From: Candidatus Nanoarchaeia archaeon
GTDB lineage: Archaea > Nanobdellota > Nanobdellia > Woesearchaeales > UBA525
Assembly: GCA_028279755.1 (NCBI GenBank)
Contig: JANQNB010000018.1
Coordinates: 134,611-198,610, forward strand
Reading direction: 5' to 3'
Length of the DNA stretch: 64,000 nucleotides
Positions 2,105 through 61,843 of this stretch are shown in pieces. Both the position numbers and the translations under genes were made by a program. The number at the start of each line of letters is the position of its first letter. Within the stretch, counting starts at the first letter, position 1. The notes beneath the pieces were generated by a model that did no database searches, was not told the origin of the DNA, and saw only the letters and a program-made list of their open reading frames with translations.

Positions 2105-4144
2105 TTACCCGAGCCAGCTGCCCACAGCGAGGAAGACCGGCACGAAGACAAGCGCGACGATGGTCATGAGCTTGAGCAGGATGTTCAAGCTTGGCCCCGA
2201 CGTGTCCTTGAACGGGTCGCCGACCGTGTCGCCTGTCACGGCTGCTTTGTGCGCTTCGCTGCCCTTGCCGCCGTGCTTGCCAGTCTCGATGTACTTCTTC
2301 GCGTTGTCCCACGCGCCGCCGGCATTGGCCATCATCAGAGCGAGCATCACGCCGCTTGCGAGCGCGCCGGCGAGCATGCCGCCAAGCGCCTGGATGCCGA
2401 GCACGAGGCCGACCACGACTGGTGCGATCACCGCCAGGAGTCCTGGCAGGATCATCTGCTTCAGCGCGCCGGTGGTTGCGATGTCCACGCACTTTGCGTA
2501 GTCAGCTTTGGCTTTGCCTTTCATCAGGCCCTTGATCGTGCGGAACTGTCGTCGCACTTCCTCGATCATGTCAAAGGCTGCGCGGCCCACCGCTTTCATG
2601 CTCATGGCACTGAACAGGAAGGGAAGCATGCCGCCGATGAGGAGTCCGATGATGACGAGCGGTTCGGTCAGGCTGATCATCGTGAGCCCGGCTTGCTGCG
2701 CGAACGCAGTAAAGAGGGCCAAGGCCGTCAGTGCCGCGCTGCCGATAGCAAAACCCTTGCCGATAGCAGCAGTCGTGTTGCCAGCGCTGTCAAGCGCGTC
2801 AGTGCGCTTCCTGATCCGCGGACCAAGCTCTGCCATCTCTGCGATGCCGCCAGCATTGTCTGCCACAGGGCCATACGCGTCCACTGCCAGGCTGATGCCA
2901 AGCGTGCTGAGCATACCAACGGCTGCGATGGCGATGCCGTAGAGGCCGCCAGTATAGTACGCGACGCCGATAGCAGCGACGAGCACGAGGACTGGCCAGC
3001 CAGTGCTGCGCATGCCAACAGCGAGGCCTTCGATGATGTTCGTGGCTGCGCCGGTCAGGCTCGACTTGCTGATCTGCTTGGTCGGGCCGTAGTGATAGCT
3101 TGTGTAATACTCGGTCAGGAGACCGATCACCACGCCTGCGACAAGCCCGGAGAGCATGGCCCAGAACAGCGCGAGGCTGCTGAAATAATAGTTGGCCAGG
3201 AAGTAGGTGCCGATCGCGACCAGCACGCTCGCGACGATCACTCCCGAGTGCAAGGCCCAGTTGATCCGCTTGTCGTTGTTCGTGCGCACGAAGAACGTGC
3301 CGATGACGCTTGCGACAATGCCGAGGCCCGCAATCACGAGCGGGAAGAGGATGCCCTTCATGCCGAACGCGACCACGCCGAGGAGCATGGCGCTGATCAG
3401 ACTGCCCACGTAGCTCTCGAACAGGTCAGCGCCCATGCCTGCAACGTCGCCGACATTGTCGCCGACATTGTCTGCGATCGTCGCCGGATTTCTCGGATCG
3501 TCTTCCGGGATGCCTGCTTCCACCTTGCCCACAAGGTCAGCGCCGACATCAGCAGCTTTCGTGTAGATGCCACCGCCGACACGAGCGAAGAGCGCGATGG
3601 ATGATGCGCCGAAGCTGAAGCCCAGGATGAGTTCCAACGCTGCAGTGTCTGCTTCCACGCCAAAGGCGAGGAAGAGGATAAGCAAGCCGAGAAGGCCGAG
3701 GCCGACGACCGCGAGACCCATCACGCTGCCGCTCTTGAACGCGACGTTGAGCGCGCTGTTCAGATTTTTCCTCGCTGCTTGCGTCGTTCTGACAGCGGCG
3801 TGCGTGGCGATGCGCATGCCGATGTTGCCGGCGATAGCGCTTGCCAAGGCGCCGACGATGAACGCGATCGCCGTGGCTGGGAAGGGCGTGGTCGTGCCCA
3901 GGAAGACCAGGCCGGTTCGCGCGTCGACCGTGAGCCATAAAATAATGGCGACGATCAGCACGAACGCTGAGAGAATGTAGTATTCCCGTCGCAAAAAGGC
4001 CATCGCGCCTTCGCGGATATAGCCTGCGATTTCCTGCATGCGTTCAGTGCCTGCTTTCTGTTTTTTCACGTTGTTCGCCAAGAAGGCGCAATAAATCAGT
4101 CCGAGGACTGCAATCACAATCAAACCGTAGATCGTCAATATCAT
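2105..4144 (-). CDS. hppA: Membrane-bound proton-translocating inorganic pyrophosphatase.
   Basis: 679 aa and polytopic. The signature [35 protein letters not shown] is diagnostic of V-type H+-PPases. Confidence 0.92.
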
Positions 4145-4253
4145 TCAACTCCCTCCGCTATCCCCTAAGGATTCTGGGCACAGCGAGCCGGAGCTCTATA
4201 TAAAGATTACTGTCGCTGAGTGGGGAAGATGATGTTACTGGATGATCCACGCC

Positions 4254-4805
4254 TTACTTGTAGGTTTCAGGGATCTCTTGACAGGCCTTTTCCAGCTGAG
4301 ACACGCGGTCCTGAAGCATGGTTCGAGATTTCTCTAGAGACGCAACAGTCTGCGTATGCGTTCCTTCTATGTCCGAGAAGAGCTGTTTCTCGATGTACGT
4401 TCGAGCGAAAGTAGGAGCCAGATGTTCTATATATGGTCCTGTACTGGTTGTATGGGGTCGGATTGTTATTTTTGTAGTGGCTTGCAATGGTGAGCACAAC
4501 ATGACTTGGCCCACTGCAATCAAATCAAATTCTTGACCATTCTCGGGAAGATAGGAGAATTCAAAAGCATCCACGCCACTGATTTTTGAGTATCGCCCGA
4601 CAATTGTAGCTTCATTATTACTGATCAGATCTTTATCTCTAAGATCGCTGGCATCAATGGAGGAGTCTTGTTCCCTGCCCAGTTCCACGACTGTATCGTA
4701 GATGTCTTTGGCACTATTGAGTTGAGCAATCCAGTCTGTTGCGAACTCTTTCGCCAATTTTTCCGCTTTGTTTAGGACTTGTTCGCGAATCATGAGCTCA
4801 CCCAC
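4254..4805 (-). CDS. Hypothetical protein, last gene of a three-gene low-GC operon.
   Basis: 183-aa ORF with no recognisable motif. Its start overlaps the stop of the upstream gene by 8 nt. Local GC is about 45% against about 60% for the rest of the window. Confidence 0.55.
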   Translation of the reverse strand: MGELMIREQVLNKAEKLAKEFATDWIAQLNSAKDIYDTVVELGREQDSSIDASDLRDKDLISNNEATIVGRYSKISGVDAFEFSYLPENGQEFDLIAVGQVMLCSPLQATTKITIRPHTTSTGPYIEHLAPTFARTYIEKQLFSDIEGTHTQTVASLEKSRTMLQDRVSQLEKACQEIPETYK

Positions 4806-5334
4806 CGACTTTGTCCAGGGTCTGTTGGCACAGGGACCTGTATGCCAGCTGGTCTATGCTTCCCCTGGGTGTTGTTCTGCTCATTGACGTAACCTGCACG
4901 CTCGCTTCTTCAATGGCTCCACAAGCGCTATGTGTACTGACCGTCACTTTATGCTGCAGAGCATCACCCAACCATTCACCGTCTACTGGATCTTCTCCGA
5001 AGTAATGTTCGATAGTGTATCCATTATATTTCTCTTGGAGTATGATTCCGAATTGTTCTTCGACTTCCGGATCTCCAGGAATGCGGTACTTGTCGGGAAA
5101 TGCTTTCTCGCTCACTTTCACCGCTATGTAGCTCTCCCGCGCCCTTGTGTGCTCTTCAGGAACTCTGAAGCCGCCGTAGTATACGTTGCCTTGTGCAAGA
5201 TCCCACTTGACTATTCTGTTATCCCAATTCTTCCCTTTTTTCAGCGAACCAATGATACGTTCTGTGAGGTTCTTCATTGTTGTACCACCATCCTCGCCTT
5301 CTCTTGTGTATCCGAACATCTCAGCACCTACCAT
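4798..5334 (-). CDS. Hypothetical protein, middle gene of the three-gene low-GC operon.
   Basis: 178-aa ORF that overlaps both neighbours by 7–8 nt, consistent with translational coupling. No recognisable domain. Confidence 0.55.
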   Translation of the reverse strand: MVGAEMFGYTREGEDGGTTMKNLTERIIGSLKKGKNWDNRIVKWDLAQGNVYYGGFRVPEEHTRARESYIAVKVSEKAFPDKYRIPGDPEVEEQFGIILQEKYNGYTIEHYFGEDPVDGEWLGDALQHKVTVSTHSACGAIEEASVQVTSMSRTTPRGSIDQLAYRSLCQQTLDKVGG

Positions 5335-5819
5335 CGTAATGTCGCTAACTGTACTGTATGTAAGACATCACGGCATAGACTGGAGTAGTTTCTCTGATCC
5401 CTTGGATTGTCAAGTCCTGTTCTGAAATCACTGGATTTGATACCTCGTCCATAGGATGGGCCTTCCAGAGAAGGATTTGCACCCTCATCATACCCATTTT
5501 CAATTTTACTCTTGTACATGACCTTTCCTTTCCATTCTCCATCAATTTTGAGTTCAAAGCATCTTTTCGTGCGTTCTAAGGAGTCTGTTTTTTCCTTTGT
5601 AATAATCTCAAGCATCGGTTTCCCGACAAGATTTGGGTGTTGTGAGGTTGAGCCGGCTGATCCGTCCTCTTTATAGTGAACACTTATCGAACCCTGGTCT
5701 GATGGTACTTCGAGCAGATAACCAAATCCTTGTTCTGGATGATCTTCATCAAGAGCTGTTTTTTCTCCATATTGGATAGCCAAGTCAACAAGGCGTTCTA
5801 CGAGGTTTTTTGTTCCCAT
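5328..5819 (-). CDS. Hypothetical protein, first gene of the three-gene low-GC operon.
   Basis: 163-aa ORF. The AT-rich divergent promoter region 5820..5944 is shared with the Lrp-family regulator. Confidence 0.55.
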   Translation of the reverse strand: MGTKNLVERLVDLAIQYGEKTALDEDHPEQGFGYLLEVPSDQGSISVHYKEDGSAGSTSQHPNLVGKPMLEIITKEKTDSLERTKRCFELKIDGEWKGKVMYKSKIENGYDEGANPSLEGPSYGRGIKSSDFRTGLDNPRDQRNYSSLCRDVLHTVQLATLRW

Positions 5820-5944
5820 GGTTCTGTCCCCATTCTTTGCTACTTTATAGTGGTCATAATATGTTTTGATGTATAATAATATATATTGTCAATTTTTTTG
5901 TCAAATATCGGAATATTTATATAATTCAAGAAAAATCTGAACCT

Positions 5945-6898
5945 ATGCGGCTTGATCTCAAAGACAAAAAGCTCCTCTTTGAACTCAGCAAGAACTCACG
6001 ACTGCCCTACACGAAACTAGGGCGCCTCACCAGAATGTCGAAACAAGTCGTGGAATACCGCATCAAACGGCTTCAGGAAGCGGGGATCATCCTCGGCTAC
6101 CTGACAGAGCTCAATTTCTCAGCCTATGGCCAACCAATAGTAGGCAGGGTCTACATGCAACTCCATAAGCTCGGTAGCAGGCGGGAACAACGCATCACAG
6201 CGCACCTGCACAACTTCGAGGAATGGAGCTTCTACGAGCGTTTAGACGGCCGATACGATCTCAACATCGCGATCATGGCAAGCACGCTGCAGGAATTCCA
6301 ACGAAAAGCCGACATGATTACGAAAGCCTTTCGCTCTGAAATCAGGGAAGAACATATCGTCATCCGCTACCAAGCATATCAATATGACTTCAAAGTCTTG
6401 CTGAACAGCAAGCAATCAGGAGAGTCCGCCATCGTCGATGAACGGCCTCCTGTGGCCTTGGATGAACTCGATGAAGCCATCCTGAAACAGCTCGTCAACA
6501 ATGCACGCATGGAAACCACGGAAATTGCGCATCGTCTCGATAAACCGTATGCAACTGTGCATGGGAGAATCCAACGTCTGATCTCCAAGGAAGTCATCAA
6601 ACGTTTCACAGTAGCGCTTGACTGGGAAAAAATGGGCTATCTCACAACGAGATTCCTCATCAACTTCGTGCATGTAGAGAATCATGAAGAGTTCCGGCAT
6701 TTCTGCCGAAATCATCCTAACATCACCTATCTTGTTTTTGCATTAGGAGCATGGAATGCAGAAATATATACCTGCTTCCCTTCAGTCAAAGCCTATCGCG
6801 CGTTTCGAGCAGAACTCAGGAACAAGTTCGGAAAACACATACGAAACATCGAGATGGTGGATGCGCTTTCCGCCCATCCTGCACAAGAGTTTTCGTGA
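5945..6898 (+). CDS. Tandem-duplicated Lrp/AsnC-family transcriptional regulator with two HTH+RAM modules.
   Basis: Two AsnC-type HTH segments are present: LDLKDKKLLFELSKNSRLPYTKLGRLTRMSKQVVEYRIKRLQEAGII and LDELDEAILKQLVNNARMETTEIAHRLDKPYATVHGRIQRLISKEVI. Each is followed by a RAM-like domain. Confidence 0.8.
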   Translation: MRLDLKDKKLLFELSKNSRLPYTKLGRLTRMSKQVVEYRIKRLQEAGIILGYLTELNFSAYGQPIVGRVYMQLHKLGSRREQRITAHLHNFEEWSFYERLDGRYDLNIAIMASTLQEFQRKADMITKAFRSEIREEHIVIRYQAYQYDFKVLLNSKQSGESAIVDERPPVALDELDEAILKQLVNNARMETTEIAHRLDKPYATVHGRIQRLISKEVIKRFTVALDWEKMGYLTTRFLINFVHVENHEEFRHFCRNHPNITYLVFALGAWNAEIYTCFPSVKAYRAFRAELRNKFGKHIRNIEMVDALSAHPAQEFS

Positions 6899-6950
6899 AT
6901 GCCTCGCAAGGACACAGTTCTTGTGACCACATTCTTTTCATAAAGTATAT

Positions 6951-8621
6951 ATGTGTGTCCACATTCCTCGTCCTATGCCTTTCATCGAGAAACAAGTCAA
7001 GGGCAAGAAGGAGTATTACTATCTCACAAAGACCTCGAGAACAGGTGCAGGCTTCAAGAAAGAGCGAGTACGCTTGTCAGGCCCGAACCCTTCGAAAGCA
7101 GAACTGCGCGAGAAAAGCCAGCAATTGCGGAAACCGTTTTCTGTCCAACGGATCAGTGATTCCCGGATTCCGAACAAGAAGATGATCTGGGAGCGACCCT
7201 GCTATCCATTCTTGGTCTGGTGCGCTGCCGAGGCGCTTGTCGCACCCCAGAAAGAAGAGTTTGGCCATAGCTGGGGCCACACGCAAGGCTTTTTCCAGAA
7301 CGGTATGGTCAAATATGTCTGGGATCGAAAACACATGATCAAGTCCGGCATCCACATCATCAACAATCTGCTCGAGGAGGAGTATTTCAAGACCAAGAAG
7401 AAGCGACACGATGATGCATTGCAGAGATTGAAGCGAACCTACAAGCGATTCCCAGAACTCGCGCGTCTGAGCGACAGGGAACTCTGCAAAGAACAGCTGG
7501 CATTCTACGCAACCTTCATGGAGTGGTGGGGCAAAAGCCAGGTTGCCGAATGCATCGCTCTTGGTGCTGAATACCTTCTCGGCGCAGAAGTCGATGAGAA
7601 TACGGTGAGCATCATCACAACGCCTTCCGAGAAGTCATACTCCACAATAGAAGAGGAAGAGTTGCTCGCAATAGCTGATGAGATCATGAAAGATCAACGA
7701 CTGCGATCGATGTTCGAGAAAGAGACCGTTACTCTCAAGAGCTTTCCAGCACTGCGCACACGACTGGAAAGACATGTTCAGGACTATTACTGGCTGCAAA
7801 ACAATTACGCAACAATCACCTATTGTGATATACAGTACTTCATCCAGGAGATCAAGAAGATCCTGGCACAGAAGAAAGCGCCCAGGAAAATCATCCAGGA
7901 CATGAACTCCCGGTTGGACCGGATCAGAAAAGAGAAAAAAGAAATGATTGCAAAGCTCGACCTTCCGGACGAGTATCTCGGCTTGCTGAGACTGGTCGAC
8001 TACTACAGTGCTCTCCAAGACATGAGAAAAGCGATCTCTATAGAGGGGAATTACTATACATATCGGTTCATTGAAGAACTTTCGAGACGTACCGGAATCA
8101 ACAGCAATCTGCTCCTGTTCATCTCACCCTTCGAATACGCTGACATACTGAAGGGAAGCTTTGATGTCTCAGAGCTGACAAGAAGAAAGACCGGATGCGT
8201 CATGATCATCACTGAGCGATTCGTGCACATGCATACTGGAGAGAAATATGAGAACGCGTACAAGAAAATACGCGGTCCAGAGACGAGTGAGATCACAGAA
8301 TTCGAAGGAAAACGAGCAGAAGGAGGCACAGTCACCGGCAGAGCCAAAATCGTCCTCGACCCCAGGAACGCGCCAGCATTCAAAGACGGAGACATCCTGG
8401 TCACGACAATGACCAGCCCTGATTTCCTCACCTTCATGAAAAAATCAAAAGCCATCATCACCGACGAAGGCGGCATCACCTGCCACGCAGCGATCATCTC
8501 ACGCGAACTCGGCATTCCGTGCATTATCGGAACCAAGATCGCAACTGAAGTTCTGAAAGATAACGATTTCATTGAAGTCAACGCGAACCACGGCCTCGTG
8601 CGCATTGTGTCGAGAGCATAA
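6951..8621 (+). CDS. PEP-utilizing enzyme (His swivel domain) family protein, paralog 1. The N-terminal ~400 aa is uncharacterised.
   Basis: The C-terminus reads GRAKIVLDPRNAPAFKDGDILVTTMTSPDFLTFMKKSKAIITDEGGITCHAAIISRELGIPCIIGT, which is the mobile PEP-utilizers domain. The N-terminal region shares YY..R..YF-type motifs with the 40822..42282 paralog. The true start may be internal, for example M at 6975. Confidence 0.75.
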   Translation: MCVHIPRPMPFIEKQVKGKKEYYYLTKTSRTGAGFKKERVRLSGPNPSKAELREKSQQLRKPFSVQRISDSRIPNKKMIWERPCYPFLVWCAAEALVAPQKEEFGHSWGHTQGFFQNGMVKYVWDRKHMIKSGIHIINNLLEEEYFKTKKKRHDDALQRLKRTYKRFPELARLSDRELCKEQLAFYATFMEWWGKSQVAECIALGAEYLLGAEVDENTVSIITTPSEKSYSTIEEEELLAIADEIMKDQRLRSMFEKETVTLKSFPALRTRLERHVQDYYWLQNNYATITYCDIQYFIQEIKKILAQKKAPRKIIQDMNSRLDRIRKEKKEMIAKLDLPDEYLGLLRLVDYYSALQDMRKAISIEGNYYTYRFIEELSRRTGINSNLLLFISPFEYADILKGSFDVSELTRRKTGCVMIITERFVHMHTGEKYENAYKKIRGPETSEITEFEGKRAEGGTVTGRAKIVLDPRNAPAFKDGDILVTTMTSPDFLTFMKKSKAIITDEGGITCHAAIISRELGIPCIIGTKIATEVLKDNDFIEVNANHGLVRIVSRA

Positions 8622-8655
8622 CGTTTAAAAACAGCTTCTTGTTCGCGTAGCGCAG

Positions 8656-8752
8656 GCCCCTGTAGTGTAGTCCGGCCAATCATACCGCCCTCTCGAGGTC
8701 GCTTCGGCGCCAGAGCAAGGCGGTGACTCGGGTTCGAATCCCGGCGGGGGCA
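8656..8752 (+). tRNA. tRNA-Glu (anticodon CUC) with a ~22-nt intron at 37/38.
   Basis: The acceptor strands GCCCCTG and CGGGGGC pair (one G-U) and are followed by discriminator A. The anticodon stem is CCGCC/GGCGG with loop CU-CUC-G, interrupted by AGGTCGCTTCGGCGCCAGAGCA. The T arm is TCGGG-TTCGAAT-CCCGG. A TATA box TTTAAAAA lies about 25 nt upstream. No CCA is encoded. Confidence 0.75.
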
Positions 8753-8815
8753 TCGAGTGTAACGAGATGCACTCGCCGGTCCCGAAAGCTCTGCTTGAGG
8801 ATATCGGCGGGGGCA
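8753..8815 (+). repeat. tRNA 3' trailer element: a hairpin with a conserved loop followed by an 11-nt direct copy of the tRNA-Glu 3' end.
   Basis: The sequence is TCGAGTGTAACGAGATGCACTCGCCGGTCCCGAAAGCTCTGCTTGAGGATAT + CGGCGGGGGCA. The last 11 nt equal the tRNA 3' terminus. An oligo-T stretch CACTTTTTCT follows. Confidence 0.7.
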
Positions 8816-8840
8816 TTACACTTTTTCTGATATCGAAAGG

Positions 8841-9206
8841 CTATTTATCGCATTTATCGCAGATGCCTTTCACTTCAAGCTGGAAGCTTGTGATGCTTCC
8901 TGGTATCTTGTTCTTCAAGAAATCGATATTATCGATGTCGAAGTGGATAACTTTTCCTGTCTTCTCACATTCGAAATGGCAGTGGCTTCGCTTGCCTTTT
9001 GAGTAGACGCTCTTTCTGTTGCAGGTATATGTATGTAACTCTCCATTCTTCACCGCCTCTGCAAGGTAGCGGTAGATAGTCGCCATCCCGATGTTTTGGA
9101 GTGTACTTCGTGCATGGAGGTCTGCCGCGCTGAAGAAGGAGGTAGTCTTCTCCACTTCTTGTCGAATCAGCTCTTTCTGTTTTGTCGCTCTGCTAGCCCG
9201 CACCAT
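8841..9206 (-). CDS. Fur-family metalloregulator (Fur/Zur/PerR-like).
   Basis: Translation MVRASRATKQKELIRQEVEKTT...HCHFECEKTGKVIHFDIDNIDFLKNKIPGSITSFQLEVKGICDKCDK shows the Fur fold with a C-terminal Cys/His metal site. The ATG at 9206 is preferred over the TTG at 9224. Confidence 0.8.
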   Translation of the reverse strand: MVRASRATKQKELIRQEVEKTTSFFSAADLHARSTLQNIGMATIYRYLAEAVKNGELHTYTCNRKSVYSKGKRSHCHFECEKTGKVIHFDIDNIDFLKNKIPGSITSFQLEVKGICDKCDK

Positions 9207-9260
9207 AATGAGAACGAGAATCAATAAGATATATAAATATTATGGAAAGCCGGAAGATTT
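9207..9260. promoter_or_regulatory. Divergent promoter region between the Fur-family gene and the CobW-family gene, containing a Fur-box-like operator and a TATA element.
   Basis: AATGAGAACGAGAATCAATAAGATATATAAAT shares AATGAGAA..GAGAATCAATAAGAT[A/T]TATAA with the element at 10619..10652. It resembles the Fur consensus GATAATGATAATCATTATC. Confidence 0.55.
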
Positions 9261-9267
9261 GATACTC

Positions 9268-10572
9268 ATGAAAGGATTAACATTACTAGGAGGCGCTCTC
9301 GGTGCAGGAAAAACAACATTCCTTACCAACGTGCTTCTTGCAGATGGATTTACACCAAAAAGAGAAGGCATAATCGTCATGGACGCTGCCGGCAAGATTG
9401 ATTATTCCATACTAGAAAACTTGGCAGAGAGCAAGGGTGTGAGAATCGCCGACGCAACATCAGGATGTACTGTGTGCGATGGGCCGGAAAGCGCTATCAG
9501 GGAACTCGCAACAATGCAGGATCTTGACCACGTCGTCATTGAACTCTCAGGTCAGATGCCACTCACCACCATGATGAGAGGTCTCGCCTCAGAAGGAGTT
9601 GTAGATCCACAAACTTTCTACCTCCTCGACCCGAGGAACTTCACACTTGTGCAGGCGGCAGACGAAGTACCCTATGCGCACGTCATCGGGATCACAAAGA
9701 GCGATGTAACTCCCGATGTTGTTCGTCACGCACCAAATGCGAGAATAGTGAGAATCCATGAGCAAGGAGTATATACTTTGGATAAACTCTTTGAAGGAGT
9801 CGACACAGCACCTTTTGCAGTTGCGTCACACCATCACCACCATCACGGATCGAAGGGGATGGTCACAAAATGGTTTGGCAAAGTGCTGAACCCTTACCAT
9901 ACGGCTGATCAAATTGAAGCAATCATCAAATCCTTGGCTGGAAGATACGATCGCATCAAAGGCCACGTTGCACTCGATGCAGAGAGGATCCTCAGGCTCC
10001 ATACCGTATTCGGCGAATGCACATTCAAGGTTGAGCAGGACGCAAGTGCTGGCAATGGGACATTGCTCTTCGTAAACCAATCAGAGCGCTACTTCCCAGA
10101 AGCCCAGGCAGTAGAGGATGCACACCCGTTTATTGATAGTCCTGACATCGTTCCTGTTCTGAGACGAGGAAGTACACGTGAGAGCTTCGTCAATTATGTC
10201 GGCATGGCACTTGCAGCTCAGCAGTATGATGATGCAATGGGTGCAGCAGCGCAACTCCGCTACGAGCAGGAGGATGAATCCCTGGTCGTGGAAACACTCC
10301 CAGCATACGCCGAAGGCAAGCTGAAACTTATCCAAAGTGGTCAGCACTCCCGGTCTCAACGACTCCTCGAAGGAATGAGTGCCTTATGGTTCTTACAGGA
10401 GAACCCTGGCGTCGTCGAACCCACGATTCAGCATACTTTGGAGAGAATCTATTGTCGGGACTTCGCAGCAATGACTGGAGCCGACTGGAAAGAGATCGAG
10501 CGTGGGTCGGATCCGGAAGAGACAAGATGGTACATCAAGGATGTCCATCAGAAGATTCCGACAAGGTCGTAA
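9268..10572 (+). CDS. COG0523 G3E-family GTPase (CobW/YciC/ZigA-like putative zinc metallochaperone) with a His-rich linker.
   Basis: The sequence MKGLTLLGGALGAGKTTFLTNVLL carries the P-loop, GCTVCDG carries the CxCC motif, and a run of six His (HHHHHH) is present. The ATG at 9268 is preferred over the longer ORF from 9091. Confidence 0.85.
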   Translation: MKGLTLLGGALGAGKTTFLTNVLLADGFTPKREGIIVMDAAGKIDYSILENLAESKGVRIADATSGCTVCDGPESAIRELATMQDLDHVVIELSGQMPLTTMMRGLASEGVVDPQTFYLLDPRNFTLVQAADEVPYAHVIGITKSDVTPDVVRHAPNARIVRIHEQGVYTLDKLFEGVDTAPFAVASHHHHHHGSKGMVTKWFGKVLNPYHTADQIEAIIKSLAGRYDRIKGHVALDAERILRLHTVFGECTFKVEQDASAGNGTLLFVNQSERYFPEAQAVEDAHPFIDSPDIVPVLRRGSTRESFVNYVGMALAAQQYDDAMGAAAQLRYEQEDESLVVETLPAYAEGKLKLIQSGQHSRSQRLLEGMSALWFLQENPGVVEPTIQHTLERIYCRDFAAMTGADWKEIERGSDPEETRWYIKDVHQKIPTRS

Positions 10573-10618
10573 GGATCGAGTTCTCTAGAAGAGCAAAAAG
10601 AAAGGGAAATACTTTAGT

Positions 10619-10652
10619 CTTATTGATAATGAGAATCAATAAGATTTATAAC
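10619..10652. promoter_or_regulatory. Fur-box-like palindrome overlapping the TATA box of the CooC-like operon.
   Basis: TCTTATTGATAATGAGAATCAATAAGATTTATAAC contains the inverted repeat CTTATTGA/TCAATAAG. GATAATGAGAATCAATAAG matches the Fur-box consensus at 15 of 19 positions, and TTTATAAC follows directly. A second partial copy ATTGATTATTGAGAA lies at 10690..10704. Confidence 0.6.
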
Positions 10653-10728
10653 ATACACATCATTTGAGGCGAGGGATAGAGATGATGCTATTGATTATTG
10701 AGAAATATACAAAGAAGAGGTGGATTCG

Positions 10729-11673
10729 ATGAGAGTCGTCTTTCTCGGCAAAGGCGGGAGCGGGAAGACCTCACTCTCAGGCGCATTTATCGAGTTTGCC
10801 ACAAAAAAAGGGCCTGTGCTCGCAATCGACGCTGATGTGAATCGTCACCTCCCCTCATTCCTCGAGATCGAGAGAAAGAGAGATGTCGGAGATGCCTATG
10901 AAGAGGTTGCCTCCTATCTCTACGGGAAACGAGAGGATATCGAACAAAAACATATGGTCGCAACAACACCCCCCTCACGGAACTCACACTTCATTCGAGT
11001 GGAGAAGGATGATCCCTTCCTCAATCGCTTCTGCTCCAAGGGAGAAGGAACGCATCTCCTCGTCGTCGGCAACTACCATGAGAAGGATGTTGGGCACACG
11101 TGCTATCATGGGAAATTGAATGTTCTGGAGATGATCTATCACCACCTGCTCGACACTGAGGATGAGATAGTAGTTGCAGACGCAACAGCAGGAATCGACA
11201 ATATCGGGACATCGCTCTACTTCTGCTACGATCTCTCAGTTTTCGTCGTCGAGCCGACTATAAGGAGCATCGAGGTCTGCAAGGAGTATCTCGCTCTCGC
11301 AGAGCAGAACGAAGTGGCAGTGGCCATTGTTGGAAACAAGATTGAGACGCCTGAAGACGAGCAGTTCATCGAACGAGAACTCGAGGGCGCAAGGATTCTC
11401 TGCCACATTCCCTATACACAGGAGTTGAAAGCGTACGAACAGGGCGATCTCTCTGCAAAGGAGCGCTTTTCGTCGATGGTCGTACCACAGATGGAGATCA
11501 TCCGCAACGCACTTGCAGAAGAGAAAAGAGATTGGAACGCCTATTATGAGCGGCTCCTCAAGACCCATAAAGTGAACAGCATCGAATGGTGGGACTCCTA
11601 TTACGGCGAACCTATCTCCGAGCAGCAGGATCCGACATTCACCTATCAAGAAGTAATGGAGGGAAAGAAATGA
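10729..11673 (+). CDS. CooC/MinD/ParA-type P-loop ATPase (deviant Walker A).
   Basis: MRVVFLGKGGSGKTSLSGAFIEFAT carries a KGGxGKT-type deviant Walker A. The stop overlaps the next gene's start (ATGA at 11670). Confidence 0.7.
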   Translation: MRVVFLGKGGSGKTSLSGAFIEFATKKGPVLAIDADVNRHLPSFLEIERKRDVGDAYEEVASYLYGKREDIEQKHMVATTPPSRNSHFIRVEKDDPFLNRFCSKGEGTHLLVVGNYHEKDVGHTCYHGKLNVLEMIYHHLLDTEDEIVVADATAGIDNIGTSLYFCYDLSVFVVEPTIRSIEVCKEYLALAEQNEVAVAIVGNKIETPEDEQFIERELEGARILCHIPYTQELKAYEQGDLSAKERFSSMVVPQMEIIRNALAEEKRDWNAYYERLLKTHKVNSIEWWDSYYGEPISEQQDPTFTYQEVMEGKK

Positions 11674-13100
11674 AGATAGAGGCGAAAAGCTCAGAGCTGC
11701 TCCGAACCCTCCTTGAGAAGAAGGACTTCCTCTTCGAAGCAGCCAGCCTTCACCAAGGACCAGTCCATCTCCTCCTCCCAGAGCAGCTTTCACGCAATGT
11801 CGAAGAGGTGAAGAGTCTCCTAGAAGAGTTTGACTGTATCAATCATATCTTCTTCGCTCACAAGTCAACAAAGTCGTTGGCCCTGCTCAAAGAGGCCCGG
11901 TTTGCCGGCATCAATCTCGACGTCGCCTCTCTCGGCGAGTTGACCAATGGACTTCGCGCAGGATTCACCGGGACGCAGATCGAGTGCACAGGTCCCAAAT
12001 CCTCTGAGTATCTCGAGGCAGCATTGCTCCATGGCTGCGCAATAAGCGTTGATTCACTCTCCGAGCTTCAGAAAATCGTACGTTTCACAAAGAGATTGCC
12101 GATCAAGCAAGCATCCATTCTGCTCAGGATTGGAGATCTCTCTCCCACTCATAAGGTACTCAAGAAAAGGGATTCGCTGTTCGGCCTTCCGAGGACAGCG
12201 CTTCCCGAAGCCTATGCTATGCTGAAGGAGAATCCGCATATCACTTTCAAAGGAGTCCACTTTCACAATGACGTACGCGATGCTGAGACACAGGCAGGCA
12301 CACTCTTATGCGCGATTGATATCCTCGTAGAGGCGATACAGCAGGGCTTTGAACCAACCATCATCAACATCGGCGGCGGATTGCGGACCGCCCAATTTGC
12401 AAACAAGCAACAAGTGCGGGCGTTTATCCAGCATCTGGAAGAAGGAGTCTCCAAACAAGAGCCTCTTGAGACCTGGCGCAATTACTCATATGGTATCTAC
12501 CTGAATCAACGCGGAACCATCTCGGGAAGGAAAGGACTGAGCGGAAAAATTGAAGTTCCTGAATACACCTCATTTCTTCGAGCCCTGCTCACAACACAAG
12601 GGAGAGATGGACGTCCACTCCTGGAGTTCATGGCCGAGAATATGATCGACCTCGCTCTCGAACCCGGCTTTCTTCTCTCCCAACAATGTGGACTGACACT
12701 TCTCCGTGTCGAGTCGGTCAACCAAGGAGCTGAAGGAAGACTCATCGTCAAGGTGGCAGGAAACATGTACAATCTCTCCTCTCAGATGGTGGAGCAGTTG
12801 ACAGACCCGATTCTCATCTCCAAAACAAAAGAGAAGAGCCCGTGCAGTGCTTTGATTGCAGGAAACCTGTGCAGAGAAGAAGATATGCTCTCGAAACGGT
12901 TCATTCCTTTTGAGCAGCGACCAAAGCAAGGAGACCTCATCTGTTTTCTGAACACCGCAGCGTACGCGGGAGGTTTCGAAGACGGAACGCCAATCCTGCA
13001 ACCAGAAGGAAAGCGCTTTGTCGTCACATTCAAGGATGGAAAGCCAACCCTTCTTTCAGAGGAGCTCTACTCTCCCTGGGAGGAACGAGATGATCTATAA
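11670..13100 (+). CDS. Type III (alanine-racemase-fold) PLP-dependent decarboxylase of the Orn/DAP/Arg decarboxylase family.
   Basis: FFAHKSTKSLALLKEARFAGINLDVASLGEL resembles the N-terminal TIM-barrel region with the PLP lysine. It is about 477 aa. Its start overlaps the upstream stop (ATGA). Confidence 0.65.
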   Translation: MKIEAKSSELLRTLLEKKDFLFEAASLHQGPVHLLLPEQLSRNVEEVKSLLEEFDCINHIFFAHKSTKSLALLKEARFAGINLDVASLGELTNGLRAGFTGTQIECTGPKSSEYLEAALLHGCAISVDSLSELQKIVRFTKRLPIKQASILLRIGDLSPTHKVLKKRDSLFGLPRTALPEAYAMLKENPHITFKGVHFHNDVRDAETQAGTLLCAIDILVEAIQQGFEPTIINIGGGLRTAQFANKQQVRAFIQHLEEGVSKQEPLETWRNYSYGIYLNQRGTISGRKGLSGKIEVPEYTSFLRALLTTQGRDGRPLLEFMAENMIDLALEPGFLLSQQCGLTLLRVESVNQGAEGRLIVKVAGNMYNLSSQMVEQLTDPILISKTKEKSPCSALIAGNLCREEDMLSKRFIPFEQRPKQGDLICFLNTAAYAGGFEDGTPILQPEGKRFVVTFKDGKPTLLSEELYSPWEERDDL

Positions 13101-17373: not shown

Positions 17374-17471
17374 GCGTGGCGAAACCCTGGCCAGTTTTTA
17401 TTATTTATTATAAAGTGATGACAAGCACGCGAATCTTTTAAAAAGACCTCTTGTTCTCCAGCGCTTGCACT

Positions 17472-17540
17472 GAGGGGGTGCCGACAACCTCACGCGTTCC
17501 GCGTTCGGAGCCGCCACTCCCTCTCGGTGCTACGCACCTC
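17472..17540 (+). ncRNA. tRNA-Leu 5' leader element: a tRNA-like acceptor-stem mimic that begins with a 12-nt copy of the tRNA 5' end.
   Basis: GAGGGGGTGCCG at 17472 is identical to tRNA nt 1–12 at 17541. The leader ends ...CCACTCCCTCTCGG, which can pair with its own 5' GAGGGGG. A TATA TTTAAAAAG lies about 30 nt upstream at ~17436. Confidence 0.55.
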
Positions 17541-17624
17541 GAGGGGGTGCCGGAGTGGTCAAACGGGCTGGGTTCAGGACCCAGTAGCTTAGTGCTTGCG
17601 CGGGTTCGAACCCCGTCCCCCTCA
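17541..17624 (+). tRNA. tRNA-Leu (anticodon CAG) with a long variable arm.
   Basis: The acceptor is GAGGGGG/CCCCCTC plus discriminator A. The anticodon arm is CTGGG-TTCAGGA-CCCAG, the variable arm is about 16 nt, and the T arm is GCGGG-TTCGAAC-CCCGT. Confidence 0.85.
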
Positions 17625-17678
17625 TACGAAGTAGAAGGGGGACGGTCCCGAACGCTAGTGAGGATATCGTCCCCCTCA
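17625..17678 (+). repeat. tRNA-Leu 3' trailer element: a hairpin with a conserved loop followed by an 11-nt direct copy of the tRNA 3' end.
   Basis: The sequence is TACGAAGTAGAAGGGGGACGGTCCCGAACGCTAGTGAGGATAT + CGTCCCCCTCA. GGGGGACG and CGTCCCCC form an 8-bp stem around a loop that carries GGTCCCGAA..GAGGATAT. Confidence 0.7.
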
Positions 17679-18450: not shown

Positions 18451-18528
18451 GCAGCCGTGGTGCAGTAGTTCAGCGTCGCTACCCTGGGAAGCAGGGGTTT
18501 CGGCGCTTCGCACCTCAAGCCCCTTAAC
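18451..18528 (+). ncRNA. tRNA-Gly(CCC) 5' leader element: a tRNA-like RNA that begins with a 16-nt copy of the tRNA 5' end.
   Basis: GCAGCCGTGGTGCAGT at 18451 is identical to the tRNA 5' end at 18529. The core CAGCGTCGCTACCCTGGGAAGCAGGGGTTTC is identical to that of the element at 56798..56881, and both end TCAAGCCCCTTAA. A TATA AATATAAAG lies about 25 nt upstream. Confidence 0.6.
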
Positions 18529-18600
18529 GCAGCCGTGGTGCAGTGGTTAACATTCAAGGTTCCCAACCTTGCGACCCGGGTTCGACTCCCGGCGGCTGCA
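18529..18600 (+). tRNA. tRNA-Gly (anticodon CCC).
   Basis: The acceptor is GCAGCCG/CGGCTGC plus A. The anticodon arm is CAAGG-TTCCCAA-CCTTG and the T arm is CCGGG-TTCGACT-CCCGG. Confidence 0.85.
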
Positions 18601-25129: not shown

Positions 25130-25176
25130 TGCACCCGCCGATGTCCTCAACCCTGTTTCGGGACCGGCGAGTGCTA
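25130..25176 (-). repeat. tRNA-Gly(UCC) 3' trailer element, same family as 8753..8815 and 17625..17678.
   Basis: In tRNA sense the sequence is TAGCACTCGCCGGTCCCGAAACAGGGTTGAGGACAT + CGGCGGGTGCA, a copy of the tRNA 3' end. GCACTCGCCGG is a near-reverse-complement of that 3' end. Confidence 0.65.
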
Positions 25177-25292
25177 TGCACCCGCCGGGACTCGAACCCG
25201 GGTAGCCGGCTGTCTTCGCCGCAGGCGGAGGCCCAGCGGGACCTCGTTCCGCGCGTGGAAGGCCGGAATCATAGCCACTAGATCACAGGTGC
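25177..25292 (-). tRNA. tRNA-Gly (anticodon UCC, tentative) with a ~44-nt intron at 37/38.
   Basis: In tRNA sense the acceptor is GCACCTG/CGGGTGC plus A. The anticodon stem is CCGGC/GCCGG with loop CU-UCC-A, then an intron, then A38. The T arm is CCGGG-TTCGAGT-CCCGG. A TATA TTTAAAAAG lies about 25 nt upstream. Confidence 0.65.
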
Positions 25293-53628: not shown

Positions 53629-53759
53629 CGCGCGTGCACATGCGTGGTGACTGTGCGCTCCTTGAAGATGATCTTGCTGCCGCAATAGATACAGCGCACC
53701 TTCTTCTTGATGTGCTCCTCCTTGATCCCCTTGCCGCAATAGAAGCACTTGTATGCCAT
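53625..53759 (-). CDS. rpoP: DNA-directed RNA polymerase subunit P (Rpo12/RPC10).
   Basis: 44 aa: MAYKCFYCGKGIKEEHIKKKVRCIYCGSKIIFKERTVTTHVHAR, a CxxC..CxxC zinc ribbon. It is too short for the ORF track. Confidence 0.85.
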   Translation of the reverse strand: MAYKCFYCGKGIKEEHIKKKVRCIYCGSKIIFKERTVTTHVHAR

Positions 53760-56600: not shown

Positions 56601-56669
56601 TGGGGCTACGAGGATAACTCGAGCGGAGCTCTCGTAACCTCTCATCCCCAGTTCTCACTATGTTCGAAC
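56601..56669 (-). repeat. tRNA-Pro 3' trailer element ending in a 14-nt direct copy of the tRNA 3' end.
   Basis: Plus-strand TGGGGCTACGAGGA at 56601..56614 repeats 56670..56683. In tRNA sense the trailer is GTTCGAAC...GAGAGCTCCGCTCGAGTTAT + CCTCGTAGCCCCA. Confidence 0.6.
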
Positions 56670-56787
56670 TGGGGCTACGAGGATTTGAACCCCGGTTGCC
56701 AGGTGTTTTGATCTCGGATCAAAACCCGCGAGGACTTTGTCCGAGCATGCCCAAACCTGGAGTGATACCAAGCTACACTATAGCCCC
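56670..56787 (-). tRNA. tRNA-Pro (anticodon UGG) with a ~45-nt intron at 37/38.
   Basis: In tRNA sense the acceptor is GGGGCTA/TAGCCCC plus A. The anticodon stem is CCAGG/CCTGG with loop UU-UGG-G then an intron. The T arm is CGGGG-TTCAAAT-CCTCG. Confidence 0.7.
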
Positions 56788-56797
56788 GGTGAATCTG

Positions 56798-56881
56798 TTT
56801 AAGGGGCTTGACTGAGCGTCAGCGAAGGAAACCCCTGCTTCCCAGGGTAGCGACGCTGATACCGAGCTACACTATAGCCCC
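56798..56881 (-). ncRNA. tRNA-Pro 5' leader element: a promoter-proximal tRNA-like RNA that begins with a 17-nt copy of the tRNA-Pro 5' end.
   Basis: In tRNA sense it reads GGGGCTATAGTGTAGCT (= tRNA-Pro nt 1–17) CGGTATCAGCGTCGCTACCCTGGGAAGCAGGGGTTTCCTTCGCTGACGCTCAGTCAAGCCCCTTAAA. Its 5' GGGGCT and 3' AGCCCC can pair like an acceptor stem. A TATA CTATATATAGG lies about 33 nt upstream. The 31-nt core is identical to that of 18451..18528. Confidence 0.6.
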
Positions 56882-61742: not shown

Positions 61743-61843
61743 AACATCTGTTTTCTCGGGAAATACGTCGTAAAAAAGTAAACTTTAAATAAGGTTATTG
61801 CCGGGATACGAACTTAGGTAATGATTTATTTGAGGTGAACACC

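Follow-up and report, generated by a model that had tools for sequence, protein, structure and literature searches.

Why should four different tRNA genes in one stretch of archaeal DNA each be followed by a trailer that ends in an exact copy of that tRNA's own 3' terminus? We addressed this question over the whole stretch of 64,000 nt (hereafter the window) and in related genomes. The trailers are copies of a small non-coding hairpin module found at tRNA-gene ends in Woesearchaeota-like DPANN archaea. The window itself is assigned to this group by its SRP54 homologs; a Thermoproteales origin, suggested by the intron-rich tRNAs, was rejected on this evidence. A hairpin module at DPANN tRNA ends has apparently not been described before: Rfam searches at the gathering threshold and at E<=10 returned tRNAs only and no match to the module, and no description was found in the literature searched, in agreement with the earlier note on this DNA, which had recognised no described element.

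Terminal duplications at tRNA genes

At each of the five tRNA genes of the window, a terminal segment is duplicated on either side of a short inserted module (Table 1). Modules lie at the 3' ends of tRNA-Glu, tRNA-Leu, tRNA-Gly(UCC) and tRNA-Pro, where we recovered the four trailers with the coordinates, lengths and sequences reported in the earlier note, and at the 5' ends of tRNA-Leu, tRNA-Gly(CCC) and tRNA-Pro. The four 3' trailers are real, and their number understated the extent of the phenomenon, which also includes these 5'-end duplications with modules.

The 3' unit is ordered as X1 (tRNA nt 61/63-73), spacer S, arm X', core and outer copy X2, where X' is an imperfect complement of the duplicated segment X and X2 is an exact copy of it. 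The core consists of GGUCCCGAA, then a mini-hairpin, then UGAGGAYAU. Segment X extends from nt 61-63, or from nt 50, in the T arm to an outer edge exactly at N73. Duplications span 11-30 nt, with an outer edge that is always the exact tRNA terminus and an inner edge that varies; the modules measure ~35-60 nt, and 35-214 nt separate the repeats. The direct copies are 11 nt each at Glu, Leu and Gly(UCC), or 12 counting the following T, and 13 nt at Pro, or 15 counting the preceding AT. The trailers had been described as opening with the complementary arm, which does not hold for Glu, Leu and Pro, where a spacer of 11-19 nt comes first; at Gly(UCC) the spacer is 2 nt. The Pro spacer has a UCGA-ACAUA-GUGAGAA apex. 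Similarly, the oligo-T said to follow directly on the Glu element is present, with a start 7 nt beyond the copy.

The loop motif shared by three trailers, GGTCCCGAA-N-GAGGAYAT, occurs three times in the window against 0 expected from 100 shuffles. Exact repeats of at least 11 nt within ~110 nt occur at 30 places in the whole window, seven of them tRNA-end duplications; the remainder lie mostly inside predicted coding regions, many in a repeat-rich ORF at 61.8-62.3 kb. We rejected a 12-nt repeat at 53678/53732 as a further unit, as it is part of an apparent coding repeat, and attributed a third CGGCGGGGGCA, located inside a coding region at 35933, to coincidence.

The 5'-end events are the mirror image of those at the 3' end. 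They duplicate nt 1-12/13, as at tRNA-Leu in the window and at loci L145-151 and L155/L220, or nt 1-16/25 with type E, a second module family. The module at the 5' end of tRNA-Leu was matched by the covariance model described below at 17472-17523(-) with E=6e-5. The two type-E copies, at Gly(CCC) and Pro, share 32 identical nt, and their variable hairpins are unrelated. The promoter box lies outside the outer 5' copy, at a normal distance (~30-38 nt) from it. Since tRNA-Gly(CCC) bears a 5' duplication, it is not a clean negative control despite its missing 3' trailer.

Table 1. Positions of the tRNA genes, modules and terminal copies in the 64,000-nt window
Feature	Position	Strand	Details	Basis
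tRNA-Glu(CUC)	8656..8752	+	canonical 37/38 intron; X1 8742-8752	ARAGORN, Rfam
Glu trailer, whole	8753-8815	+	63 nt	
Glu spacer S	8753..8768	+	apex of X1-S-X' hairpin, tandem GA/GA motif	sequence, fold
Glu arm X' (GCACTCGCCG)	8769..8778	+	identical to Gly(UCC) X'; A.G mismatch vs Glu X	
Glu type-A core, GGTCCCGAA-hairpin-TGAGGATAT	8778..8804	+		
Glu outer copy X2 (CGGCGGGGGCA)	8805..8815	+	T5 downstream at 8822-8826	
Outer 5' copy of tRNA-Leu nt 1-12 (GAGGGGGTGCCG)	17472..17483	+	promoter box TTTTAAAAA outside, 17436-17444	
Inverted type-A' module (GGCTCCGAA..TGAGGTTGT, minus-strand reading)	17484..17540	-	between outer 5' copy and tRNA-Leu	
tRNA-Leu(CAG)	17541..17624	+	X1 17614-17624	ARAGORN, Rfam
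Leu trailer, whole	17625-17678	+	54 nt	
Leu 3' unit	17625..17667	+	S 17625-17635, X' 17636-17644, type-A core 17644-17667	
Leu outer copy X2 (CGTCCCCCTCA)	17668..17678	+		
Outer 5' copy of tRNA-Gly(CCC) nt 1-16	18451..18466	+	TATA-like box AATATAAAG upstream	
Type-E module at Gly(CCC)	18467..18528	+	core CGCTACCCTGGGAAGCAGGGGTTTC at 18477-18501	
tRNA-Gly(CCC)	18529..18600	+	without 3' unit	
Gly(UCC) trailer, whole	25130-25176	-	47 nt	
Gly(UCC) outer copy X2 (CGGCGGGTGCA)	25130..25140	-		
Gly(UCC) 3' unit	25141..25176	-	type-A core 25141-25165, X' 25165-25174, 2-nt spacer 25175-25176	
tRNA-Gly(UCC)	25177..25292	-	canonical intron; X1 25177-25187	Rfam with E-value threshold, ARAGORN -i
Pro trailer, whole	56601-56669	-	69 nt	
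Pro outer copy X2 (CCTCGTAGCCCCA)	56601..56613	-		
Pro 3' unit	56614..56669	-	divergent core 56614-56637 (ACGA-hairpin-GAGU variant), X' 56638-56650, S 56651-56669	
tRNA-Pro(UGG)	56670..56787	-	canonical intron; X1 56670-56682	Rfam, ARAGORN
Type-E module at Pro 5' end	56788..56864	-	25-nt core 56828-56852 identical to Gly(CCC) one	
Outer 5' copy of tRNA-Pro nt 1-17	56865..56881	-	match to nt 25 with one mismatch	

Structure of the core hairpin

We derived a covariance model from 21 hairpins. An unfiltered search of the 64-kb window with this model gave four significant matches, all four at tRNA ends, and every full-length match in 26 other loci was tRNA-adjacent. In the alignment, 82-84% of cells are paired and the covariation score is 0.45-0.53, compared with 0.14-0.16 in shuffles; compensatory changes are seen beside the tandem GA in subfamilies A, A', B, D and Pro. 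On this covariation, we consider the core hairpin to be real. It comprises an X'.X stem, a 1x2 internal loop, the tandem GA and a variable apex. The structure shows strand specificity and a G.U pair conserved in 23/24 sequences, and mismatches between the X' and X arms (13 G.U vs 11 A.C) have no RNA-type wobble bias. Loops and spacers differ from copy to copy, also within one genome, but the core blocks do not. Across the box variants (CCGA + RUGAGGA, UGGA/GUGACUA, UCGA/GCGAGAU and ACGA/GAGU), only the GA dinucleotides are common to all.

Distribution and turnover in relatives

The earlier note had proposed a covariance model and a scan of relatives; sequence scans placed the core behind at least 11 tRNA identities on unrelated DPANN contigs, including Val, Leu, Pro, Ser, Phe, Lys, Thr, Gly, Arg/Cys-like, Glu and others. 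The arms were specific to the local tRNA in all contigs compared. The contig scan, with a 33-bit pattern, yielded 3 real cases among the 120 matches listed, the rest being mostly chance bacterial ones, and the metagenome scan yielded ~18 real cases among the 120 matches listed.

Units form tandem arrays, and their layout differs between near-identical strains. Two orthologues of unit-bearing window tRNAs, tRNA-Glu at L145 and tRNA-Leu at L148, have no 3' unit, and at the latter a 5' unit is present in decayed form. At tRNA-Gly(UCC), the window carries type A at nt 62/63, L145 an array of three units and L148 type D at nt 60/61. Disabling mutations were found in outer copies at L202, in the distal Gly unit of L145 and at L148; because the outer copies decay, the contiguous tRNA is the functional gene. 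Core mutations were found in distal copies and also in some proximal ones. Between tRNA-Leu of the window and that of L145, X', X1 and X2 change together. In the Glu unit, both X copies are of the Glu type and X' is of the Gly(UCC) type, mismatching Glu, and this sharing of X' suggests transfer between similar targets.

A proposed insertion module aimed at tRNA-gene termini

The anatomy, distribution, polymorphism and mirror orientation of the units, the decay of their outer copies and their structural covariation are all observed in the sequences. Our preferred reading, to which we give a probability of about 0.5, is that each unit is a miniature non-autonomous insertion module aimed at tRNA-gene termini, which carries or recreates a copy of the terminus and is co-transcribed as a leader or trailer. 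Among the possibilities raised in the earlier note were relics of a small mobile element that targets tRNAs and duplicates its target site. A mobile-element relic is indeed the best fit, because there are mirror units at 5' ends, presence and absence among orthologues, mixed subtypes and insertion points at one tRNA, strain-variable arrays and decaying outer copies. A target-site duplication of fixed length from a staggered cut was not found; the outer edge is always the tRNA terminus.

Each insertion event would lead to the order tRNA...X1 / S - X' - core / X2. As the duplication extends to the very end of the gene, a single uninterrupted and functional tRNA gene would always survive, and the outer copy would be left as a decaying relic. 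Recombination between the repeats could then make arrays grow and shrink. The module may pass through a transient single-stranded form folded as a rod or hairpin; X' would pair with X in this form, and thus its stem would reproduce the duplex tRNA-gene end. Integration might proceed by recombination or templated copying within X, Campbell-style, by analogy with the folded CTXphi attP(+) and integron attC sites, or alternatively through an RNA or cDNA intermediate derived from processed leaders and trailers. The units are probably transcribed, because they are placed between the tRNA and its T-run, and most likely they are co-transcribed with the tRNA, from which RNase Z would cut off the trailer or RNase P the leader.

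The need for X' to match every new target is a difficulty for the insertion-module reading. In addition, the combination of identical core blocks with differing loops and spacers in one genome, seen also in the two type-E copies, looks like purifying selection, suggesting function rather than recently made copies of a single master, and to our knowledge a mobile entity of 47-100 nt has no precedent. A bolder and rather unlikely proposal is a self-targeting mobile module free of protein genes. This would be a 35-60-nt RNA or ssDNA with a rod or hairpin stem that reproduces its target (the final 11-24 nt of the tRNA or mirror-tRNA), which homes by that arm with host enzymes and re-creates the target copy at each event. 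Candidate host enzymes would be tRNA-end processing activities together with a ligase and a reverse transcriptase, or a hairpin-specific recombinase.

Searches for machinery and carriers of the units also weigh against the insertion-module reading. Pfam scans of the 64 window ORFs, ~29 of which have no Pfam match, revealed no gene for a recombinase (and no match of the Phage_integrase type), a transposase, a reverse transcriptase, Cas1 or a Nop-domain protein, and none of these genes was seen beside units in annotated relatives. No larger autonomous version turned up at the ~30 loci compared. Among the viral contigs of IMG/VR, type A gave 24 matches, all coding-sequence coincidences, and type E gave none. 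No tetranucleotide target is conserved at the insertion points beyond a YC/C tendency (the slash marking the junction). Several other origins of the unit sequences were also rejected. A hairpin-telomere or palindromic footprint would make the spacer a reverse complement of the flank downstream, and apart from a single 6-mer coincidence at Glu no such match is seen. GGAY is not a copy of tRNA nt 59-62, because the core is constant whatever the tRNA. Derivation of X' from the tRNA's own 5' acceptor strand also fails, since X' follows the perfect complement instead (at Leu, ACGG and not GCGG).

Alternative explanations

It is possible, if on the doubtful side, that the units are host-functional RNAs kept by selection, either as structured leaders or trailers or as small RNAs freed by RNase Z or RNase P. 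They might act as a mimic of the tRNA end or minihelix, as a folding or quality-control switch in which X' pairs with X1 or X2, or as a protein-binding hairpin. The invariance of the core blocks against varying loops and spacers, also within one genome, would be expected of such RNAs, whereas mutations of the core in distal and even some proximal copies would not. Likewise, the strand-specific structure with its conserved G.U and the position between tRNA and T-run argue for an RNA role, but the inverted copies at 5' ends would be antisense in the tRNA transcript, and the arm mismatches show no wobble bias. The concerted change of X', X1 and X2 at tRNA-Leu points towards function, while the unit is missing at some orthologous tRNAs. 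Small RNAs directly downstream of tRNA-Val and beside tRNA-Gly provide a DPANN precedent (PMC3491384). When pre-tRNA-Leu was folded with its trailer, as the earlier note had proposed, RNAfold predicted an alternative pairing of X1 with X' in which the 5' acceptor strand lies on X2. However, the duplication has its starting point at nt 50 or at nt 61-63, depending on the tRNA, and so no single tRNA-mimic geometry applies.

Two narrower roles had been put forward earlier. A dedicated module for pre-tRNA 3' processing or termination is poorly supported, as some orthologous tRNAs are without the unit and extra copies decay, and a processing role is further disfavoured because inverted 5' copies cannot work in this way in a tRNA transcript. 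A decoy of the acceptor stem is conceivable for the class duplicated at nt 61/63-73 and does not fit the class duplicated from nt 50.

We consider it quite improbable that the repeats are classical integrase scars, that is, attL and attR left behind after a larger integrative plasmid or virus had lost its body by deletion. Repeats of a terminal tRNA segment, a regenerated tRNA and tandem repeats are hallmarks of tRNA-targeted integration, and here the direct repeat is a tRNA segment ending exactly at the gene end, the intact tRNA is regenerated and repeats accumulate in tandem. Nevertheless, none of ~30 independent units has more than 214 nt between the repeats or contains an ORF, and nothing was found in IMG/VR. 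The same ~25-nt core lies beside attR at more than 10 different tRNAs, which is unexpected under protein-only recognition of att sites, and at tRNA-Glu both copies are of the Glu type and yet X' is of the Gly type.

Very unlikely, in our view, is a box C/D-like guide RNA made with the tRNA, in which X' is the guide, CCGA a D'-like box and RUGAGGA the C' box, directing 2'-O-methylation of the tRNA's own T/acceptor stem. A D'-like GA, a short loop and a C'-like GA do occur in this order, a second GA/GA apex lies in the spacer and a guide-like arm of ~12 nt stands directly 5' of the D'-like box; moreover, dicistronic tRNA-C/D sRNA genes are known from N. equitans, as are sRNAs in circular or permuted form (PMC3491384). 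However, the boxes are unlike RUGAUGA/CUGA, and the nucleotides due to form the 3-nt bulge of a K-turn are in Watson-Crick pairs: 23/24 sequences have A-U and the next pair covaries (C-G 14, U-A 3, A-U 1, U.G 1). The GA-to-GA spacing is 16-23 nt in the three window units counted, the target predicted by the N+5 rule would differ between duplication classes (nt 64 or nt 51), and the two "guides" are mutually complementary. The K-turn, C/D sRNA, H/ACA RNA and the hammerhead, hairpin and HDV ribozymes were likewise set aside, since in a comparison by eye with their consensus sequences neither boxes nor bulges agreed.

Finally, a non-canonical BHB intron or alternative 3' exon, with the outer copy as the true 3' exon and X1-S-X'-core spliced out, is barely credible: one register does give a 4-bp helix flanked by CGA and AU(C), though with 2 unpaired nt facing the first bulge where a BHB has two 3-nt bulges around a 4-bp helix, the b1b2/b3 cleavage rule (verified on the window's own tRNA-Glu intron) puts the 3' cut exactly at the junction of core and X2, and a T-run follows X2, but the only possible 5' cut, RUCC-CG/G, is 2 nt inside X1 and would leave a tRNA with 2 extra nt, covariation in subfamilies A', B, D and Pro backs another register without a BHB, the contiguous tRNAs score 45-57 bits and outer copies carry disabling mutations. 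Split-tRNA leaders or trailers, permuted tRNAs and BHB introns were also rejected on geometry in both layouts, as the junctions never restore a tRNA.

Implications

If the units are insertion modules, elements with no room for a coding sequence would keep reshaping DPANN tRNA genes at both ends, and the annotation of tRNA genes and small RNAs in DPANN genomes would have to allow for them. They would form a sequence-defined system for the gain of tRNA leaders, trailers, fragments and possibly introns, and would imply machinery that recognises tRNA termini at the nucleic-acid level. Should the self-targeting proposal be true, DPANN archaea would have a new kind of site-specific insertion that works in a guide-like way, and this could be a route to tRNA leaders, trailers and perhaps introns. 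On the other hand, if the units are functional RNAs, most tRNAs of one lineage would carry a conserved RNA motif that is new. The family is easy to detect with one 9+9-nt motif and one covariance model, and is testable by small-RNA sequencing.

Comparison with known systems

Among miniature elements, a MITE was rejected, since the unit ends are unrelated (the start of S and GAGGAYAT) and thus form no terminal inverted repeats; the only palindrome lies inside the unit and takes in the target copy, and the duplication has no fixed length. PATE/REP elements derived from IS200/IS605, which have subterminal hairpins and insert 3' of a 4-5-nt target with no duplication, do not fit because the 11-30-nt duplication is always there. 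TIGR-Tas arrays, the IS110 bridge RNA and C/D dual guides resemble the units in having tandem units in which two conserved elements alternate with two short variable segments matching opposite strands of one DNA site. In TIGR arrays, edge and loop repeats alternate, spacers A and B (9-12 nt) are not mutually complementary and the arrays lie beside a Nop-domain gene (PMC12045711). In contrast, X' and X are complementary (84% paired) and no Nop-domain ORF is present in the window, and we rejected both TIGR-Tas and the IS110 bridge RNA.

The small RNAs of N. equitans include one with a GA motif immediately downstream of tRNA-Val and others adjoining tRNA-Gly genes, and mobility and circular intermediates have been proposed for them (PMC3491384). 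They share with the units a DPANN lineage and the combination of a GA-motif small RNA with neighbouring tRNAs. In N. equitans the boxes are the canonical RUGAUGA/CUGA, the predicted targets are mostly rRNA and a copied tRNA end is not described, whereas the units have non-canonical boxes, no K-turn bulge and arms made of the tRNA end and its complement.

Casposons make a 14-15 bp duplication at the 3' end of tRNA genes, and tandem insertions occur. The units are similar in their short duplication at the tRNA 3' end and in their tandem copies, but have no TIRs and, among the window ORFs, no Cas1, and their duplication of 11-30 nt is pinned by its outer edge to the terminus. The attL/attR sites of SSV- and pNOB8-type tyrosine integrases are also alike in the tRNA-segment repeat up to the exact gene end, the intact tRNA and the relics outside it. 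The units differ from these sites in that their repeats are 35-214 nt apart and enclose neither an integrase nor any ORF, that a conserved hairpin core and an inverted target copy lie beside the outer repeat, and that insertions occur at 5' ends as well, in mirror orientation.

In form only, the units are comparable to CTXphi attP(+) and integron attC sites. They lack the conserved RYYYAAC/GTTRRRY boxes, with no AAC/GTT triplets at the stem base, and have no evident dif-like site, no cargo and, in the window searched, no linked Xer or IntI, and their target is the terminus of a tRNA gene. What they have in common with these sites is an imperfect hairpin that has extrahelical bases, a variable apex and a stem reproducing the target or core site, and insertions that accumulate as arrays.

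tRNA genes of the window and their trailers

Five tRNA genes were found in the window by ARAGORN and Rfam, and three of them carry canonical 37/38 introns. The minus-strand Gly(UCC) and Pro genes, with introns of 44-45 nt, were missed by ARAGORN defaults and recovered only via the intron option or Rfam; a tRNA undercount is to be expected in automated annotation of genomes with such intron-containing tRNAs.

Positions of the tRNA genes and of the modules at tRNA 5' ends (type E)
Feature	Position	Strand	Remarks
tRNA-Glu(CUC)	8656-8752		ARAGORN/Rfam
tRNA-Leu(CAG)	17541-17624		ARAGORN/Rfam
type E module	18467-18528	+	between outer copy and intact tRNA-Gly(CCC)
tRNA-Gly(CCC)	18529-18600		ARAGORN/Rfam
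tRNA-Gly(UCC)	25177-25292	minus	ARAGORN/Rfam
tRNA-Pro(UGG)	56670-56787	minus	ARAGORN/Rfam
type E module	56788-56864	minus	between outer copy and intact tRNA-Pro
type E module	L148/L149 (compared contigs), ~12110-12200

An earlier note had reported trailers behind the Glu, Leu, Gly(UCC) and Pro genes, each closed by a copy of the tRNA's own terminus. When the sequence was re-checked, all four positions proved exact and each copy a perfect match to the last 11-13 nt of its tRNA. The motif said to be shared by three of the trailers, GGTCCCGAA-N-GAGGAYAT, occurs three times against zero expected, and tRNA-end duplications account for seven of the 30 places in the whole window where exact repeats of at least 11 nt lie within about 110 nt, so the trailers are real and not a product of chance. 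The complementary arm that the note placed at the trailer start is present, but in Glu, Leu and Pro a spacer of 11-19 nt precedes it, and the oligo-T described as directly following the Glu element is a T5 run that starts 7 nt past the copy. This feature of DPANN tRNA genes is genuine, reproducible and wider than had been seen. In every case an intact tRNA gene has a relic duplicate of its terminus beside it, a conserved hairpin with a stem made of the target and its complement lies between gene and relic, and such events are found at the 5' and the 3' ends of genes as mirror images.

Several other features of the window were observed. Just upstream of the tRNA-Pro locus, two adjacent ORFs (54790-56193, plus strand) match the type VI secretion Hcp family (PF05638, E=2e-33 and 2e-8), which is unexpected for an archaeon. 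An ORF at 61835-62485 (plus strand) consists of 54/102-nt periodic repeats rich in AAG/GAA codons and has no Pfam match. The region 4001-12000 has a GC content of 0.47-0.49, compared with about 0.54-0.58 elsewhere in the window. Besides tRNA-Glu it encodes an AsnC-type regulator, a CobW-like GTPase and a PEP-utilizer protein and has three small ORFs without annotation (4254-5819, minus), and mobility genes were not detected in it.

Anatomy and fold of a unit

At 3' ends each unit reads X1-S-X'-core-X2, that is, the tRNA's own terminal segment, a spacer, a complementary arm, the core and an outer direct copy. X comprises tRNA nt 63-73 in Glu, Leu and Gly and nt 61-73 in Pro, and X' is an imperfect reverse complement to its first 9-13 nt. 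The core consists of GGUCCCGAA, a mini-hairpin of 2-5 bp and UGAGGAYAU. Over 21 independent copies the X'-core-X2 hairpin is 84% paired, with a covariation score of 0.53 compared with 0.16 for shuffles and at most 0.19 for slid controls; a model-fitted alignment gave similar figures for both.

In the favoured register of the core, a tandem G.A/A.G is directly flanked by two covarying Watson-Crick pairs, which are CC/GG in subfamily A (the window and many contigs), UG/CU in subfamily B (L145), UC/GA in subfamily D (L148) and AC/GU in the Pro variant of the window. Beyond these pairs a 1x2 internal loop is followed by pairs such as U-A in type A, or C-G in types A', B and D, that run on into the X'.X2 stem. 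Towards the apex, 23 of 24 sequences have an A-U pair, and covariation is seen at the pair after it (C-G 14, U-A 3, A-U 1, U.G 1). The spacer often forms another such apex (for example UCGA-ACAUA-GUGAGAA in Pro, or UCGA-GUGUA-ACGAGAU in Glu), which caps an alternative hairpin, X1-S-X'. Two BHB-type candidates were rejected: a BHB-like core register (a 4-bp GUCC/GGAY helix between CGA and AU), against which the subfamily comparison favoured the other register, and a BHB intron, whose only candidate 5' site misses the register by 2 nt.

Mirror units at 5' ends

On the 5' side of tRNA-Leu, in the window and at L145-151 and L155/L220, the first 12-13 nt are duplicated with an inverted module between the copies. 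These mirror modules are antisense within the tRNA transcript, and their promoter box precedes the outer copy by about 30-38 nt, just as it precedes the gene in tRNAs with no 5' unit. All tRNAs of the window are affected by units. The type E modules, a second module family, accompany duplications of nt 1-16 in Gly(CCC) and nt 1-17/25 in Pro. In the window the two type E copies agree exactly over a 25-nt core and have 32 identical nt, and each has a variable hairpin within AGGGGUUU/AAGCCCCU; type E has no target-complementary arm and gave no Rfam or viral match. At L178 (~12440-12600), 20 nt of upstream flank and tRNA nt 1-26 are duplicated before tRNA-Glu, followed by an inverted A'-like core (GCTTCCGAAGCATCAGCCGAGGAAGT) and a T-run; unlike all other cases, this duplication reaches past the tRNA 5' end.

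Distribution and turnover

Pattern scans of genomes and metagenomes gave mostly noise, but at least about 21 genuine units were recognised among the matches listed, each at a tRNA-gene end (Val, Leu, Pro, Ser, Phe, Lys, Thr, Gly and Arg/Cys-like) and each with arms matching the local tRNA. Duplications starting at nt 61-63 are 11-14 nt long and those starting at nt 50 about 24 nt, and the outer edge is the tRNA terminus in all 3' units, plus at most 1-3 shared T's. An unfiltered covariance model gave only four significant matches over the window, all at tRNA ends, and its full-length matches on 26 other loci were all tRNA-adjacent. No matching family was found in Rfam and no viral carrier in IMG/VR, and literature searches did not find the units described. 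In the tRNA-Val(GAC) of two related contigs (L014 and L240, labelled Methanosarcinales or unlabelled), both the gene and its downstream copies have the T loop UGCAAGU, which puts a G where U55 is nearly universal; L014 may have been misbinned.

The SRP54 gene adjoining tRNA-Gly(UCC) has 88% identity to a Candidatus Woesearchaeota protein, which places the window in the DPANN archaea rather than in the Thermoproteales. Relatives for comparison were reached via SRP54 homologs (82-86% identity). Among these, the 3' unit is absent at the L145 tRNA-Glu and at the L148 tRNA-Leu, where a decayed 5' unit is the sole remnant. Gly(UCC) carries one type-A unit in the window, an array of three in L145 and a type D unit at a different insertion point in L148. 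Near-identical strains have Leu arrays of (A B)x3 or A A B A A B, and Gly arrays of three or two units. Changes that would break the acceptor stem are found in outer copies (X2 of L202 and L148 and the distal L145 Gly copy), so the contiguous gene is the functional tRNA. At Glu the unit has the same X' as at Gly(UCC), with mismatch to the Glu acceptor strand; entry of a Gly-type unit into the closely similar Glu terminus would give this result.

Three units follow tRNA-Pro at L162/L196 (L196 4358-4700), the first and third with a longer, different core (ATGCAGTCAATCTGCGGATTTCCTGCAC..., "type C") in the same X'-core-X layout. Independent arrays at L033 (5160-5200) and L145 (13590-13620, minus) end in a unit broken after the 5' half of the core (GGTCCCGAATGAC..., GGTCCAGAAC...), which hints at a preferred breakpoint in its apical hairpin.

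Origin of the units

We consider the units to be insertion modules, with a probability of about 0.5. Mirror copies, the involvement of all window tRNAs, turnover, array differences, outer-copy decay, the Gly-type X' at Glu and X'.X mismatches without RNA-type bias (13 G.U versus 11 A.C) argue for insertions rather than a built-in tRNA feature. Against these observations we weighed a host-functional RNA, which appears rather unlikely but has several points in its favour. Copies within one genome have invariant core blocks but wholly different loops and spacers, and the two type-E copies show the same division, a pattern suggestive of constraint on resident copies. Because 23 of 24 hairpins keep a G.U pair, the structure can form on one strand only, as RNA or ssDNA. 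At tRNA-Leu, X1, X' and X2 have all changed in concert between L145 and the window. Situated between tRNA and T-run, the units are probably transcribed. The alternative acceptor pairing raised in the earlier note is predicted for Leu by RNAfold, in that the minimum-energy fold of the pre-tRNA with its trailer (17541-17685) pairs X1 with X' and the 5' acceptor strand with X2, a purely thermodynamic prediction that ignores tertiary structure; if transcribed, this trailer could compete with correct tRNA folding. A DPANN precedent is Nanoarchaeum equitans, where C/D sRNA genes lie directly downstream of tRNA-Val and adjoin tRNA-Gly genes, and where circular and permuted sRNAs occur whose mobility was raised by the author (PMC3491384).

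For insertion modules, duplication always to the exact terminus and the presence of both target strands (X' and X) favour a folded single-stranded molecule. A small molecule of this kind carrying a terminus copy would integrate, its X'.X stem imitating the duplex target much as in CTXphi attP(+) or integron attC, and recombination inside X would yield X1-S-X'-core-X2. Conceivably, processed trailers or leaders were instead re-joined to tRNA or mirror-tRNA ends as RNA and copied back into DNA, a route that would equally account for boundaries at RNase P and RNase Z sites. Arrays would most simply grow and shrink by unequal recombination between X copies. On the opposing side, no recombinase, transposase, reverse transcriptase, Cas1 or Nop domain was found among the 64 window ORFs, about 29 of which have no Pfam match. 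A self-targeting mini-element that borrows its enzymes seems unlikely.

Comparison with known systems

Each of the closest systems has at least one defining feature that was tested and that the units lack. The units differ from tRNA att duplications in having no element body or integrase, from folded ssDNA recombination sites in having no AAC/GTT or dif boxes, and from casposon target duplications in having no TIRs, fixed TSD or Cas1. Canonical C/D boxes and the K-turn bulge of C/D sRNAs, including the tRNA-sRNA genes of N. equitans, are likewise missing. In TIGR, compared together with the IS110 dual-guide RNAs, the spacers are independent of each other (PMC12045711), whereas the arms of the units are mutually complementary. 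Overall, the finding is akin to known small non-autonomous insertion elements and tRNA-linked small RNAs.
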